Part shown: positions 19,717 to 61,849 of the stretch, piece by piece | Numbering within the stretch: the stretch's first letter is position 1 | Layout: every line of letters begins with the position of its first letter | From: Candidatus Heimdallarchaeota archaeon | GTDB lineage: Archaea > Asgardarchaeota > Heimdallarchaeia > Heimdallarchaeales > Heimdallarchaeaceae | Length of the DNA stretch: 64,000 nucleotides | NCBI GenBank assembly: GCA_030603365.1 | Contig: JAUVXV010000004.1 | Coordinates: 64,001 to 128,000 of the forward strand | Direction of reading: 5' to 3' | The notes under the pieces: generated by a model | Told to the model about the DNA's origin: nothing | The model's input: only the letters and a program-made list of their open reading frames with translations | The model's database searches: none | Position numbers and translations under genes: made by a program

Positions 19717-19793
19717 TGGTGGACCGGGCGAGATTCGAACTCGCGGCCTCTTCCATGCCAAGGAAGCGATCTTCCAGACTGATCTACCGGCCC
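19717..19793 (-). tRNA. tRNA-Ala(GGC)
   Basis: GGGCCGG/CCGGTCC with G3-U70; anticodon arm CTTCC-TTGGCAT-GGAAG. Confidence 0.97.
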
Positions 19794-19869
19794 AGAATTT
19801 AAGGCTCAATCAACAGAATTATTGAGCATAAATGAGTTTTTTTAACTATGAAATTTAATTAAAGCAAAT

Positions 19870-20034
19870 CTAGTGTCTGTGCCAAGCATAGTTTCTAATT
19901 TTTGTTGATCTTCCGAATCCACAAGATGCACATTGTTTATGTCTTCTATGGAAGGATCTATTACCACATCTTCTACATATAATGTGGGGTGCTTTTTTGT
20001 TATGCTTTCCAAATGATGGAGTTCCCTTTGTCAT
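19870..20034 (-). CDS. rpl37e: 50S ribosomal protein L37e (not in the ORF track)
   Basis: Hand translation [54 protein letters not shown]; follows the Sm gene, a conserved archaeal pair. Confidence 0.97.
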
Positions 20035-20055
20035 TTTTATACCTTCTAATTAGAT

Positions 20056-20283
20056 TTATTTCGGAGGAGGACTAATCATAATTACATTGTCACCACGTAC
20101 AATGATATCTCCTAATTTTGTAGTTCCTTCTGAACCAATCTCTTCTGCGTTTTCAAGTGTTAGATTTAGATGAATATCATAATTTTTTAAGATGCCTCTC
20201 ATTCGACGATTACCACGTAATCTGATTAATACTCTTTTTTCTCTAGCTTGATTTAAGATATCCATCGGTTTGCTTGTTGTCAT
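20056..20283 (-). CDS. Sm-like archaeal protein (SmAP1/Lsm)
   Basis: Sm1 'GILKNYDIHLNLTL' and Sm2 'IIVRGDNV'. Confidence 0.95.
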   Translation of the reverse strand: MTTSKPMDILNQAREKRVLIRLRGNRRMRGILKNYDIHLNLTLENAEEIGSEGTTKLGDIIVRGDNVIMISPPPK

Positions 20284-20504
20284 AGTTATTACTCCAAAAC
20301 TATACGAACTCCAACTTTAAGATTTCATTATAAAAGTTTTTATCATGTAGTCATATTGAACCCATCAACTATCAATTTAGAGAAATAACTGAAAGTAAGT
20401 TATTACGAGGGTTTTAATAGCGAAATATAGGAAAAAAAAGAAGAAGAAAGAGTTAAGGTTTAAAATTATAAAACTTTCTGTTATGAGTTACTTTTTCCGA
20501 CAAT

Positions 20505-20820
20505 TTCCGAGTAGAAGTTGTGAAGAGCGTTTCAGGACTCATCCTAGACCAGCGTAGTGTAGATGAAAAACAAAGTTCTTCATAGGTGTATAACTGCACA
20601 AAATGGAAAGATAAACAATTCAAGCTGTGACAGTACCGGTCTTCTGGAGTAGAATATACAAAACTGTATACCTAGCTCAAAGGAATCATTTCCCGTTACG
20701 AGAGGGAACTCATTACCTGACCTAGCAAAGCGAAGCAATTGATAGGTCCTCTACCTGTCCCATCGAATCTAGAGAAACGATGTATCCCCTACGGAATACT
20801 TAAGCCACTGGCTTAAGGGT
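20505..20820 (-). ncRNA. Putative omegaRNA/reRNA (guide scaffold) of the TnpB nuclease
   Basis: Overlaps and follows the tnpB stop. Hairpins on the minus strand: CTTAAGCC/GGCTTAAG, GACCTA/TAGGTC, TTCCC/GGGAA, TATACA/TGTATA, ATGAAGAAC/GTTTTTCAT, long-range AGACCGGT/GCTGGTCT, AGGA/TCCT. Boundaries are inferred. Confidence 0.55.
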
Positions 20821-22370
20821 TCAAAGCATTCATACCACTCTAGCTTATGGAAGTCTCCAGAAAGTGTATCACGGAGGTTGTATTGATAATTTTTAGTTGG
20901 TTCTAAAACATATTTGATCAACCTCTTAGCTATGTTTCTCGCCCCGTTCAAGTCAGCATTGAGTTCATACTTGCATTGGTGGCAAACAAATCGTCCTTGA
21001 CTTGAGCGGGTAGTCTTTGTAGAAAAACATCTAGAACATCGTTTCGAGGTATTTTTCTCATCAACAGCTACAACGCGATAAGACTCAAATCCGTGTTTTT
21101 GAAGTTTGTACATCAGTTTCGTTATAAAGAGGCGATAACACCACTTATGTAACTGACGACGTAAAGATTTGTTTCCACTTCCACTTTGGTGATTTTTCCG
21201 AATATGCTTAGGATAGCCAACAGATACAAACAGATTATAACGCTTCTTCAACTGGAGAATGAAATCAACTAATTGATTGACTGCATAGCCCAGTTCCTGT
21301 TCCGTAACAGAACGAAGTCTTTTCCGTAGTTGGGAAAGTTTGACGTTAAGCTGGTTGTGGGGTTGACCATTCTTCTTCCTTGTATCTAGTTCGCTCTGAA
21401 TAGATTGAATCCTTTTCTCTAGTCGATACATCTTAGCTTGTCTCTCCTTATTGACAATGAAACAAAGTTCATCCATAATTACTTTCCCAGTTGGGGTAAG
21501 TAACACAGCAACAGCTGTCTTCTTTATTCCCAAATCTACGCCTAACACTGCGGGAGGGTTAGTGGATTGGTAGCTGGGAACAGAAAATTGTTGGCTGAAA
21601 TGCGCCCACCATTGTTGCTCTTCGGATTTATAGACTAGTTCCAACTGCTTAGTTTTCGCTAGTTTCAGCTTCTTCTCGTGACAAGGGGAATAAGCTAAAG
21701 GTAGCCACATCTTAGGATGGATATGTCTATCAGCTCTTTTTGAATCAAGAGAGTCTCGCACTTCTAACCATAGTTTGGCTTCAGGATTGTCGGGTTTAGG
21801 ATGAATCCTTACCGTCCAACTACCTGGTGTCATTCTTGGATACAAAGGACGAGGGATTTTCTTCTTGAACTCTGGTCTATTCAGATTCGTCTTAGAACGC
21901 TCTTGTAGTTGTCTCCAACTTTCATAAGCCCAGATAGCTTTGTCTCTACATTCTTGGAATTCATTAACTGAACTGCGAGGAAAACGTTTCTTCAGATCGT
22001 GAGGAACAGAAGTTCGTAACTTGTTCTTCCCTTTTCTGACCGTCGTTAAAGTTAACTTATCCAAAACGGATTTGTTTACTGTTAAGTCCTTCTTGATTAG
22101 TTTTTGTAATTGGCCATCTATTAGGACTTGTTTTTCCTCGTTGTGGTAGATGATTCTCAAGTAGTCTCGAATGATTCTCGTATCTCTTTCGGTTATTCTT
22201 CGCAACCTTTCACACTCTCTAACAGACATTAGTTCCGTCTTGATCCTTAGAGGAACGGCCTCATAGAATGTAACTAATGATGCTTGAGAAGTGCTTTTGT
22301 CTTCTTCAAATTTGTCGTGTTTCTTGTTCTCATTTAGTTCTTCTTGTTTATTCATTTCTTCTTTTTTCAA
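20769..22370 (-). mobile_element. tnpB: TnpB-family RNA-guided endonuclease (533 aa) with rearranged RuvC; no adjacent TnpA
   Basis: RuvC-I 'VLGVDLG'; RuvC-II position 'VSVGYP'; 'VDEKNTSKRCSRC...CHQC' zinc ribbon; RuvC-III 'NADLNGARNI'. AGGAGGT precedes the TTG start. Visibly more GC-rich than its neighbours. Confidence 0.9.
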
Positions 22371-22632
22371 GTCTTTTACCTCCTGAAATTATAAGTGTTT
22401 GATAAACATTGAACCTTTTTTCGAATTGTCGAAAATCATTGGTTCCTCTTCTAGAATCGGTGTGAAACTAGTAGAGGAACCAACGACTGGTACCACGTGT
22501 AAAATTGCTTCAGGAATTCGAATAAGATTTCAGAAGAACTACTTAACCTCTTTCTATCCTCCTTTTTTTGGTGATAAGCGAGCGATTAACAGTCCACGGG
22601 GGGTGGAGACGTAGTTATTCTCGCTCATCTAC
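22371..22632 (-). promoter_or_regulatory. Structured ~260-nt leader (or upstream ncRNA) of tnpB
   Basis: 10-bp stem GATGAGCGAG/CTCGCTTATC at 22573-22629; ~16-19 bp stem at 22439-22483; TTCCTGAAG can pair with the SD-containing TTTCAGGAG. Confidence 0.55.
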
Positions 22633-22650
22633 GTACAAACAAAAGTTGAC

Positions 22651-22658
22651 CTTATAAA
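22651..22658 (-). promoter_or_regulatory. Candidate TATA box (TTTATAAG) for the tnpB leader
   Basis: Archaeal TATA-like sequence about 22 nt upstream of the first leader hairpin. Confidence 0.45.
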
Positions 22659-23044
22659 CCCCAAGGAAATTTCATGACCTGCCTTTTTCTGTCAGATAAT
22701 TTGTCAATTCTCTTTGTGTACAGAATAGCAATTGCTGGCTGTATGGGAGTTTTTTCTCTAAAGTAACTTTTTCCAGTAAACCTTCTAATGTTATTTGTGT
22801 TGTTCCAAGAATAGCTTGCTCTATTTCAAACTCTGAAAATTCCTTTAATACAATAGAACAAACAATTTGTGCACTGGATCTGGTGTCAAAAAATAATGCT
22901 GAAATGCTCTCATCAAATTGTTAAATAGTTAAGAAACACACGTAAGTAACAACTAACAGAATAAGGATTTAACTTTAAATATCAAAATGAGTATGCATAT
23001 TATAGATACAGTACAAATCAGAAATATAGGAGAAATTATTTAGG

Positions 23045-23743
23045 ATGACAGTAGTAAACAAACAGAAGGTTAAGACCATTTTATTGATAAGTACAGTTCT
23101 ACTGTTAATGGGGAATAAGCAAGAGGTTATAGCAGAAGAAGAATATCTGATTGTAAGAATAGTAGATGCTGAGTATCCTCCGTCAGTCTATGTATTTACT
23201 GGTTGGAATTATACAGGTTTTAGTTTACGTTTTTATATGGAAGTGGAGAATCCAACACAATCAGAAATAAACATAACCTACTGGTGTAGTCCCCTACCGT
23301 TTCCACATTTAAGAACAAATCTGGAGAATGAAAGTCTTGAGGCAACAATATCTACTCAATATGAATGGTCATACCCCCAAAATTATTCTATGCCACCTGG
23401 AATTGAACAGAGATCACATCCTGCAGCTATAATAATTTTCAATTATGAAGAAACTCAACTTCCCTTAGGTGAATATGAGATATGGTATGATTATACAGAT
23501 TGCAGTTATACATATGTTCCTGTTATAACACAAAGCATGTTCATTTATGTTACAGAAGATAGTATATCCTACTTCTTCGAATACAATAACGAAACGAAAG
23601 TTGTTTCTACGACACAATTTACAGATACAACAAATCAATTTACAGATACAGCAAATCTTGTTTTAATCTATTTTATAACACCATATATTGTAAATGCAAT
23701 ATTAAATAGAATGAGAATGAGAATGAGAAAAATAAATAAATAA
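23045..23743 (+). CDS. Secreted or cell-surface protein with signal peptide, Thr-rich linker and C-terminal membrane anchor
   Basis: N-terminal basic plus hydrophobic stretch; N-glycosylation sequons; 21-nt tandem duplication encoding QFTDTTN/QFTDTAN; TM segment followed by a basic tail. Confidence 0.75.
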   Translation: MTVVNKQKVKTILLISTVLLLMGNKQEVIAEEEYLIVRIVDAEYPPSVYVFTGWNYTGFSLRFYMEVENPTQSEINITYWCSPLPFPHLRTNLENESLEATISTQYEWSYPQNYSMPPGIEQRSHPAAIIIFNYEETQLPLGEYEIWYDYTDCSYTYVPVITQSMFIYVTEDSISYFFEYNNETKVVSTTQFTDTTNQFTDTANLVLIYFITPYIVNAILNRMRMRMRKINK

Positions 23744-23785
23744 ATAATCTTTAGAATATCTGATTAACCATTATAGTAATCTTGA

Positions 23786-24153
23786 TTGATTTGACAACTT
23801 GAACACTTATCAATATAACGTCAAAGACTAATAATTACATCTTTAGATTTTTTACCACTCATATATTCGATATCAATTCTTCCTACGGCAACTCTAGTAA
23901 CAGATTGCTCTGTTTATTGTTTTTCAGCTACTTCCTCTGGTTTCTCATCTAGTTTCTTAATCATAAGTTCCAAAGCTGTTTTTTTCTCTTCAAAATCTTC
24001 TAGAAAGCGCACTTTACCCTTGAATTGAGCGGTTGCATACAGATGATCACAAGCTCCTTGAATATACCCTTCATCAACTAAAGCCTGTCCACACACAATG
24101 TTATTTTCTTTTAAGATATCGACTTTTTTACCCTCGCTTGCACAATGGAAAAA
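23786..24153 (-). pseudogene. Inverted partial copy (3' two-thirds plus downstream spacer) of the gene at 61072-61563, with a nonsense mutation
   Basis: Reverse complement aligns to ~61230-61598 at about 95% identity; TTA>TAA at 23914-23916. Confidence 0.92.
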
Positions 24154-24326
24154 ATTATTGTGATGGATTAATTACGAATTTACCGATTTCAAATGGGTTC
24201 CTTCATTTTAATTTTTCTAGCAAAACGATTGCTACTGCACAAGTATTTCTTTAGTTAGAAATCGTTACCTTTAAGTAGAGAACGGCTTGCTTCCTTCTTA
24301 AGTTATTATTATATGAGGCGTAACTA

Positions 24327-24824
24327 ATGAGTACTGAATATGTAACAGTGGATTTACTTGTAGATGGAGGAAAAGCATCACCAGGAGGAGCAATGGGTCC
24401 AGCTCTAGGTCCACTTGGTGTTAATATGGGTAAAGTAGTTCAAGAAATAAATAAAAAAACTCAAGCTTATGCTGGAATGAAAGTTCCCGTAAAAATTGTT
24501 GTAAATAAAATAACCAAATCCTTTGAACTCGAAATAGGTATTCCTCCCGCCTCTGCACTTGTATTGAAAGCCGCAAACCTTCCTAAAGGATCAGGTACTC
24601 CTAGTAAAGAAATCATAGGAAACATCACTTTTCCACAATTAATTGATTGTGCCAAAGCGAAGTGGGATGATTTAACTGCTAGTACCATAGGCGCTGCTTG
24701 TAAAGAAATTCTTGGTACCATGGTTTGTATGGGTGTAACTTGTGAGGGAAAAGATCCTCGGGAAGTGCAGAAAGAAATTGATGAAGACAAATACGAAGAA
24801 CTTCTCAAAGAAGCTGCAATGTAG
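24327..24824 (+). CDS. rpl11: 50S ribosomal protein L11
   Basis: 'GGKASPG..MGPALGPLGVN', 'GMKVPV', 'GIPPAS', 'GTMVCMGV'. Confidence 0.97.
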   Translation: MSTEYVTVDLLVDGGKASPGGAMGPALGPLGVNMGKVVQEINKKTQAYAGMKVPVKIVVNKITKSFELEIGIPPASALVLKAANLPKGSGTPSKEIIGNITFPQLIDCAKAKWDDLTASTIGAACKEILGTMVCMGVTCEGKDPREVQKEIDEDKYEELLKEAAM

Positions 24825-61071: not shown

Positions 61072-61563
61072 ATGCGTGGAATGAGAAGAAAGGAAAAAGC
61101 AATAGATGATATTGAAGAATTGCAGCATATTTTGAAAACTGTTAAACATATTACTATAGCAATGTGTCAAGATAATGAACCCTATTTGGTTACTTTGAGT
61201 CATGGTTATGATCCAAAAGAACATTGTATTTTCTTCCACTGTGCAAGCGAGGGTAAAAAAATCGATATCTTAAAAGAAAATAACATTGTGTGGGGACAGG
61301 CTTTAGTTGATGAAGGGTATATTCAAGGAGCTTGTGATCATCTATATGCAACTGCTCAATTCAAGGGCAAAGTGCGCTTTCTAGAAGATTTTGAAGAGAA
61401 AAAAACAGCTTTGGAACTTATGATTAAGAAACTAGATGAGAAACCAGAGGAAGTAGCTGAAAAACAATTAACAGAGCAATCCGTTACTAGGGTTGCCGTA
61501 GGAAGGATTGACATTGAATATATGAGCGGTAAAAAATCTAAGGATGTAATCATTAGTCTTTGA
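61072..61563 (+). CDS. Pyridoxamine 5'-phosphate oxidase-like flavin-binding protein (NimA-like)
   Basis: 'MRRKEK', 'PYLVTLSHGY', 'FHCASEGKK', 'MSGK'. Confidence 0.88.
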   Translation: MRGMRRKEKAIDDIEELQHILKTVKHITIAMCQDNEPYLVTLSHGYDPKEHCIFFHCASEGKKIDILKENNIVWGQALVDEGYIQGACDHLYATAQFKGKVRFLEDFEEKKTALELMIKKLDEKPEEVAEKQLTEQSVTRVAVGRIDIEYMSGKKSKDVIISL

Positions 61564-61600
61564 CGTTATATTGATAAGTGTTCAAGTTGTCAAATCAAAC

Positions 61601-61849
61601 ATGCCAATGTTCGGTAAATGCGCCCAATGTGGAAGATCTTTAGATGAGGGAAAGAAAACTTGTGGAGCTAGCTTCGCAATATGTAAAAAATGTAAGATGT
61701 TAATCCATCCACATTGTATGGGGGAACATAGGTTAATGCATAATCGCCAAGATATGATAGCAAAATATGCTACAAAAAATGAGTATGATTCTGTTTTTTC
61801 AAGAACTATCGCGTTCATTAAAGAGAAATTGTCTAAATCAAAATCCTGA
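61601..61849 (+). CDS. Small Cys/His zinc-finger protein
   Basis: 'CAQC...CKKC...HPHC..EH...H'. Confidence 0.65.
   Translation: MPMFGKCAQCGRSLDEGKKTCGASFAICKKCKMLIHPHCMGEHRLMHNRQDMIAKYATKNEYDSVFSRTIAFIKEKLSKSKS

Follow-up and report, generated by a model that had tools for sequence, protein, structure and literature searches.

We describe a tnpB locus in a 64,000-nt stretch of the genome of a Candidatus Heimdallarchaeota archaeon (GenBank assembly GCA_030603365.1, contig JAUVXV010000004.1, forward-strand positions 64,001 to 128,000; hereafter the window, whose own numbering is used throughout). With a probability that we put at roughly 0.6, it encodes an intact RNA-guided DNA endonuclease of 533 aa, probably active, that remains as a relic of a non-autonomous mobile OMEGA (obligate mobile element-guided activity) element. 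The protein is a TnpB of an already known type, in which the catalytic glutamate of RuvC-II is relocated to an alternative position (Ealt) and RuvC-I reads Asp-hydrophobic-Gly (D-Φ-G), and full-length relatives of its clade were found only in Asgard archaea. The original prediction, made from the letters of this locus, had already proposed a probably active nuclease; activity remains a prediction here too, and fits the intact reading frame, the ratio of nonsynonymous to synonymous substitution rates among genus copies (dN/dS 0.18-0.30) and the invariant catalytic residues.

Catalytic residues and their conservation

The tnpB gene (Table 1) begins with a TTG codon that is common to several sister copies and is preceded by GGAGG 7-8 nt upstream. 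Its product matches the Pfam family PF07282 with 60.1 bits (cut-off 26.3) and the NCBIfam model NF040570 (guided_TnpB) with 97.9 bits, slightly below that model's cut-off of 100. As the original prediction had read them, both RuvC aspartates are intact (D279 in GVDLG of RuvC-I, D473 in NADLN of RuvC-III), the canonical RuvC-II glutamate is replaced by glycine (G385 in VSVGYP) and a glutamate appears in VDEKNTS (E438). E438 lies six residues before the first CxxC of a CxxC...CxxC zinc finger (C445, C448, C463, C466). In a HMMER alignment to AsCas12f (PDB 8j3r), G385 corresponds to the canonical Glu in IQMEDL, and E438 to the Pro in IDPQYTS.

Each of D279, G385, E438 and D473 is identical in 120/121 aligned Asgard homologues (Heimdall and Thor), and D279, E438, D473 and the four zinc-finger cysteines are each invariant in at least 119 of the 121. 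Among the ~95 nearest representative clusters, taken from a library of 1.8 billion proteins, Gly (once Ser) at RuvC-II always comes with an alternative-site Glu, a RuvC-II Glu comes with Pro (14) or Ala (2) at that site, and no sequence has both glutamates or neither. Given this strict either/or together with the 120/121 conservation, the relocated-Glu arrangement is real, far beyond chance.

All 17 full-length genus copies of tnpB have open frames, with dN/dS reaching no lower than 0.22 (0.22-0.30) in pairs that include the window copy. Internal stops considered in sister copies proved to be only the natural stop of a C-terminal variant nine residues shorter. Family members span 472-612 aa, and the enlargement that had been pointed out for the 533-aa protein therefore stands only as a modest one. 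Full-length relatives were found exclusively in Asgard metagenome-assembled genomes (MAGs), namely Heimdall, Thor and one Borrarchaeota record; the Asgard host guessed beforehand agrees with this, the relatives on named records being Heimdallarchaeota and Thorarchaeota MAGs. Matches in Bathyarchaeia, Hadarchaeota, Methanohalarchaeum, haloarchaea and Chloroflexi cover the RuvC part only.

Placement among TnpB, Cas12f and Fanzor proteins

In an AlphaFold2 model built on 81 homologues (predicted local distance difference test, pLDDT, 89; predicted template modelling score, pTM, 0.83), D279 ends strand β1 (residues 273-280), G385 ends β4 (379-386), E438 comes directly after β5 (433-437) and D473 opens the RuvC-III helix (472-489). 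A RuvX-like relocation of this kind, with a Glu-to-Gly change at RuvC-II compensated by a Glu of β5, is described for the RIIr clades by Altae-Tran 2023 (PMC10691335), and Yoon 2023 (PMC10711439), who names the relocated residue Ealt, describes the same topology. According to Jiang 2023 (PMC10530073), the archaeal Ealt enzyme TvTnpB cleaves DNA and the Ealt mutant E467A of ApmFanzor is dead.

The fingerprint of Fanzors given by Yoon 2023 (PMC10711439) is DPG at RuvC-I plus Ealt, and TnpBs that combine Ealt with D-Φ-G form a clade separate from the DPG Fanzors and pro-Fanzors. RuvC-I of the window protein is D279-L-G, sampled family members have D-L/I-G and the ~95 nearest clusters D-L/I/F/V-G; DPG occurs in none of these family members or clusters. 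The protein also fits the pattern D{P}G-x(120-160)-E-x6-CxxC-x(12-18)-CxxC-x(4-8)-D of the same study, with spacings of 156, 14 and 6. A family profile scores 92 bits against Cas12f, 52 bits against mimivirus Fanzor2 and 20 bits (E 2.5e-3) against ISDra2 TnpB, and finds no Fanzor1 chain at E<=1. Foldseek ranks AsCas12f and OsCas12f at the top (E~1e-17), followed by TnpBs (ISFba1 and ISDra2 TnpB at E 1e-12 to 1e-8), with mimivirus Fanzor2 in 17th place. By sequence and fold, the window TnpB is thus nearer to Cas12f and TnpB than to Fanzor2.

Our placement rests on the motif fingerprints together with these profile and fold scores: because the protein and its sampled family carry D-L/I-G, not DPG, the window TnpB is, judged by its motifs, of the Ealt + D-Φ-G type (TnpB2 / RIIr) and not of the Fanzor lineage. 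The catalytic site had been called Fanzor-type, of which the relocated glutamate holds and the RuvC-I motif does not, and the likeness to Fanzors is only that common to all Ealt enzymes. A glutamate six residues before the zinc finger, as in Fanzors, and an Asgard host would be what one expects of a protein that belongs to, or is closely sister to, the ancestral lineage of the eukaryotic Fanzors. Such a descent is nevertheless most improbable in view of the D-L-G motif, of the profile and Foldseek rankings of Fanzor2 and of the lack of an adjoining IS607 TnpA, Fanzors being derived from cyanobacterial IS607 TnpBs (Yoon 2023, PMC10711439). With the DPG fingerprint failed and Cas12f scoring above Fanzor2, the relevance to Fanzor origins suggested at the outset is not upheld.

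The 3′ RNA, the variable segment and the T tract

The window copy and seventeen further full-length genus copies were oriented and aligned downstream of tnpB. Conservation extends over ~290 nt and homology is then lost abruptly after ACTCAT. The RNAalifold consensus of this scaffold contains 58 pairs, 18 of them with compensatory changes, and an internal AATGAGT pairs with the terminal ACTCAT. No Rfam family matches window positions 19800-24400.

The segment that follows the scaffold, a putative guide, is unrelated in sequence among copies and ranges from 11 to 125 nt in length. Beyond it, every one of the 17 scorable copies has an oligo-T tract no more than 125 nt from the scaffold end, compared with 7.5-9.5% of random window positions. 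An origin of this tract as the terminator of an upstream ATPase gene (see below) was discarded: ATPase paralogues that stand without TnpB (loci L069 and L065) have no such tract after their stop. The closest pair of copies, L046 (G013:C72) and L029 (G010:C27), has scaffolds 94% identical over the last 150 nt and dS of 0.32; their variable segments are not similar (p=0.8), and homology is evident on both sides, in the preceding scaffold and in the following T tract plus ~100 nt (p<=0.004).

The guide of a paralogue on contig C3 finds no second target in the genome, its matches staying at control level, and exact 20-mers of two guides (window and C3 paralogue) have no match in a viral contig collection. 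Seven metagenome matches to guide 20-mers were taken as chance because they do not extend beyond 20-21 nt and their flanks are unrelated.

Some copies show further peculiarities. The variable segment of L024 (G003:C27) is repeated (38 nt, 82% identity) 198 nt beyond the T tract and that of L052 (G013:C80) is repeated (19 nt, one mismatch) 9 nt beyond it; both repeats fall 30-230 nt downstream of the segment, inside the 3′ end of a convergent neighbouring gene. In L046 and L029 the final ~25 nt of the scaffold (...GAGAATAACTCAT) recur in degenerate form past the T tract, ~100-150 nt from where the scaffold stops, which lends the region a repeat-variable-repeat look. One cold-seep contig (run X1, 90% likeness) skips window positions 20551-20751 and probably comes from a relative with a shorter variant of the 3′ RNA, as found in L049, L025 and L035.

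From this layout a mechanism may be proposed. Transcription would start at a TATA-like box just after the ATPase remnant and run through the ~300-nt structured leader, tnpB and the ~290-nt ωRNA scaffold; past the scaffold end at 20483 the next ~16-29 nt would constitute the guide, and the transcript would end at the oligo-T tract (20429-20453). TnpB would bind this RNA and cut guide-matching DNA next to a transposon-adjacent motif (TAM), using D279, E438 (at strand β5 instead of β4) and D473.

Table 1. Features of the tnpB locus in window coordinates.
Feature	Position	Strand	Description
tnpB coding sequence	20769..22370	-	533 aa, TTG start, TAG stop
ωRNA-like scaffold	20483..20820	-	starts inside the last tnpB codons; ends sharply at ...GTAACTCAT (20483)
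Variable segment V, putative guide	20454..20482	-	29 nt directly after the scaffold
Polypyrimidine/oligo-T tract	20429..20453	-	conserved; putative archaeal transcription terminator of the tnpB-ωRNA transcript
Non-coding leader	22371..22680	-	~300 nt, conserved; 16-copy alignment and consensus fold
HerA/DUF87-like ATPase remnant	22681..22896	-	last 72 codons, no start; upstream of the leader
Strain-specific insertion, ~3.9 kb	20358..24249		between LSm gene and rpl11; comparison with genus genomes

Transposases, cas genes and mobility of the clade

Whole-genome profile searches found neither Y1 TnpA (PF01797) nor Cas1 in the window and no Cas1 above the cut-off in the genome, and Tandem Repeats Finder detected no repeat array in the window, in agreement with the earlier remark that TnpA, cas genes and a CRISPR array are missing nearby. 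Cas1 does pass the cut-off in five genus genomes, never beside a tnpB copy, and neither Cas1 nor a recombinase adjoins any TnpB copy examined. Y1 TnpA was found in 0/25 genus genomes, which are 72-92% complete and so do not prove its absence, and in 10/83 genomes of the class.

The serine-recombinase matches of the genome all lie outside the window and pair with other, larger TnpBs. These IS607-like pairs, each a serine recombinase with a 644-678-aa TnpB-like gene, are located at G000:C14:340940-343273, C16:51396-53725 and C16:152853-155184; about eight ~425-aa TnpB genes are also present in the same genome, and their ends, like those of the IS607-like pairs, are unrelated to the window element. 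Mobilisation in trans by the IS607-like elements was considered and rejected, their loci having no similarity to the window leader or 3′ RNA.

Mobility is directly visible in a related subfamily of 486 aa (37% identity), which numbers 14 and 18 copies (83-89% identical, partial as well as full-length ones counted) in the two closed genomes of Ca. Heimdallarchaeum aukensis and endolithica (G041 and G042; e.g. L092-L107). Its ends are sharp, with NCAT at the left flank and ...AAATCAT at the right end (16 copies) between unrelated flanks, and for one G041 copy the orthologous site in G042 is empty and contains AT(G) a single time. No Y1 TnpA match was obtained in closed genome G041. Since this subfamily is multi-copy and sharp-ended and has an orthologous empty site, the clade is a genuine mobile OMEGA family.

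The window's own subfamily has a left boundary that merges with the ATPase stop region; it looks older and seems to spread as part of larger blocks. TCAT is doubtful as its TAM or crossover site: the ATPase of L069, which has no TnpB, carries the same 11 nt after TCAT, and a TCAT TAM would also have the window element target its own right junction.

A strain-specific insertion

In 23/24 other genus genomes searched, window position ~20350 abuts ~24249, with 30-90 nt between them and LSm next to rpl11, so that 20358-24249 is an insertion that exceeds the TnpB unit on both sides. Its cargo comprises the TnpB unit, the ATPase remnant, a 232-aa open reading frame (ORF) and an inverted partial gene copy. 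Independent cold-seep contigs span the left junction without mismatch, confirming both the sequence and that junction. The TnpB unit would accordingly have arrived inside the larger 3.9-kb insertion and not by a precise transposition of its own.

The copy-number and empty-site search proposed in the original prediction thus returned a site free of the insertion in those 23 genomes and, in a first sample in which the window genome is counted, 1-7 TnpB-family matches in 10/19 genus genomes. Besides the window copy, the genome has one more intact tnpB paralogue (64% identity) and two decayed fragments. Domestication, which had been raised as a possibility, finds no support, because the insertion is strain-specific, the family is patchy with decayed fragments, and the related subfamily is multi-copy and mobile; we conclude that the window TnpB is not domesticated.

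The same facts bear on whether the element is a functionless relic, its frame still open and the element itself dead, having neither transposase nor target, and on its way to decay. Such an end point would agree with the lack of a TnpA in cis and of any found in the genus, with a neighbouring ATPase reduced to 72 codons, with the two decayed fragments and with the age of the within-genome copies, which are 60-70% identical in amino acids and give no sign of a recent burst. However, the window copy has preserved its frame, every catalytic residue and zinc ligand, and its leader, scaffold and T tract, the dN/dS of its pairs is 0.22-0.30, and 17/17 full-length genus copies have stayed open despite dS near 1, which makes a dead element unlikely.

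Several neighbouring features deserve mention. The 232-aa ORF (23045-23743, + strand) beside the ATPase remnant looks from its sequence like a membrane or secreted protein. A DNA paralogue, 65% identical, is found at G000:C2:46389-47551, also divergent beside an ATPase C-terminal fragment; since this pair on contig C2 has the same divergent layout, the ORF and the ATPase fragment were duplicated as a block. Part of a gene 37 kb away (61227-61601) is repeated in inverted orientation, over ~375 bp and with 95% identity, at window positions 23783-24157; homologues of that gene occur once elsewhere in every genus genome. A tRNA-Ala (GGC) gene at 19717-19793 (- strand), two genes downstream of the locus, has very deep coverage in cold-seep runs, as expected of a conserved gene.

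Upstream leader and linkage to a HerA-like ATPase

Within the leader, a TATA-like TTTATAAG occupies 22651-22658. Two long hairpins, of which the second spans ~22436-22486, are also present, as are a purine-rich tract and the GGAGG that precedes the start codon. When reverse-complemented, the purine-rich tract (22540-22568) roughly matches the 3′ polypyrimidine tract (20429-20453); both are of low complexity, and the complementarity may be trivial.

The ATPase remnant upstream of the leader is 75% identical to residues 819-890 of the L060 ATPase. In sister copies the gene is full length (892-910 aa), lies on the same strand directly upstream of the leader and tnpB, and encodes a HerA/DUF87 P-loop domain (e.g. 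L060:4083-6761 in G013:C80 and L063:3355-6087). A full or N-truncated ATPase gene stands upstream in at least 6 of the 17 genus copies, and C-terminal remnants or traces are found in most others. The N-terminal ~370 aa belong to no known family, PADLOC returns HerA-type matches, and the only members of the ATPase family found come from MAGs of the Heimdall group or of unclassified Asgard archaea. Distant orthologues of the ATPase (~940 aa) adjoin rpl1-rpl10-rpl12 with no TnpB, and the TnpB subfamilies at 43% and 37% identity and that of Thor are without ATPase; the link is therefore specific to the window's TnpB subfamily and not obligatory.

ATPase and TnpB together form a block with discrete boundaries that are shared in different contexts. 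The recurrence of the ATPase on the same strand, with remnants even in the window, the HerA-type matches, the lack of a nearby transposase and the dissimilar segment between homologous flanks in L046/L029 are all compatible with TnpB being half of a host two-gene system, for instance in defence or DNA processing, that uses an exchangeable, single-spacer-like guide and has lost its ATPase in the window copy. We consider this improbable: the ATPase is dispensable, being truncated or gone in most copies while tnpB is intact, and each gene occurs without the other, as described above. The guides, moreover, have no second genomic target, the exact 20-mers of two of them have no viral match, and the signal of guide exchange comes from a single locus pair.

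A related speculation, to which we attach little weight, is that the guide is more than flanking DNA, namely an exchangeable cassette that is held between the scaffold and the conserved terminator tract and belongs to a unit whose ancestral form encoded the HerA-like ATPase as well. It draws on the unalignable L046/L029 segment between homologous flanks, the downstream repeats of L024 and L052 and the T tract in 17/17 copies. If it were true, the locus would represent a transposase-free, single-guide RNA-targeting system intermediate between TnpB and effectors of the CRISPR type.

Our preferred reading, that of a probably active nuclease in a non-autonomous OMEGA relic, has to be held against a number of observations that weigh on the other side. 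A position of E438 in the catalytic pocket is suggested by strand topology and the literature. Expression of the locus, the RNA ends and the terminator role of the T tract are likewise predictions read from the sequence. The window guide matches only itself or its own flank in its own genome, at control level. A conserved T tract beyond the variable segment falls outside the textbook picture of IS200/605 elements. Some trace, at least, of the 3′ end of the ATPase gene persists in nearly all sister copies, a pattern better explained by two genes duplicated together as a block than by clean transposition of TnpB alone. Finally, in the cold-seep contigs no sequence joins the two sides of the element or of the insertion, nor does an excised or empty allele of the window copy appear.

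Comparison with known systems

The relocated catalytic glutamate has already been described, and is active, in other TnpBs and in Fanzors; for this reason, and since the DPG fingerprint failed, the locus changes nothing regarding the chemistry or the origin of Fanzors. It does document a well-conserved clade of 470-610-aa Ealt TnpBs with full-length relatives found only in Asgard archaea. Given that the scaffold is defined and covarying and the start of the guide is clear, the window TnpB lends itself to TAM and cleavage assays. The related subfamily, having reached 14 copies in a closed genome without a detected Y1 TnpA, raises the question of the mobilising enzyme. The recurrent linkage to a HerA-like ATPase and the variable segment bounded by a T tract are absent from the published accounts compared and merit a look at population level.

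Fanzor2 and pro-Fanzor proteins (ApmFanzor2, PDB 9b0l) have in common with the window TnpB the Ealt position, the zinc finger and the overall TnpB fold. The window protein differs from them by DLG instead of DPG, by the lack of an adjoining IS607 serine recombinase, by a weaker match than to Cas12f (52 vs 92 bits) and by its prokaryotic host. Cas12f (AsCas12f, 8j3r/8dzj; OsCas12f, 9nzq) provides the best profile and Foldseek matches and is alike in size and domain order; it keeps the canonical Glu, however, and works with a CRISPR array and tracrRNA, whereas the window locus has neither array nor cas genes. With ISDra2 TnpB (PDB 8exa/8h1j) the locus shares a gene 3′ end overlapping the ωRNA, a scaffold that ends at the right end of the element and a guide derived from the flank, but that protein is a distant relative (profile E 2.5e-3) with the canonical Glu, 408 aa and a Y1 TnpA partner.

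Altae-Tran 2023 (PMC10691335) reports Asgard TnpB groups with a hypervariable region downstream of tnpB. Such groups are described with an Asgard Cas1 alongside and with GTTCACTCA at the end of the hypervariable region; the window locus has neither, the GTTCACTCA motif being absent near it, and its hypervariable segment is bordered by ACTCAT and the poly-T tract, unlike the borders given there. The RIIr clades of the same study (PMC10691335) share the Glu-to-Gly change with a β5 Glu, and several such branches are almost exclusively archaeal.

Among TnpB2 proteins, TvTnpB of Thermoplasma volcanium (PMC10530073, PMC10711439) belongs to an IS605 element with a Y1 TnpA, whereas no TnpA accompanies the window TnpB in cis or was found in its genus. 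In comparison with TvTnpB, the window protein is larger (533 aa), and its locus adds a ~300-nt structured leader, an upstream ATPase remnant and a conserved T tract after the guide. Common to both are the Gly at RuvC-II, the Glu six residues before the first CxxC, D-hydrophobic-G at RuvC-I, an archaeal host and a 3′ RNA that ends at the element boundary.

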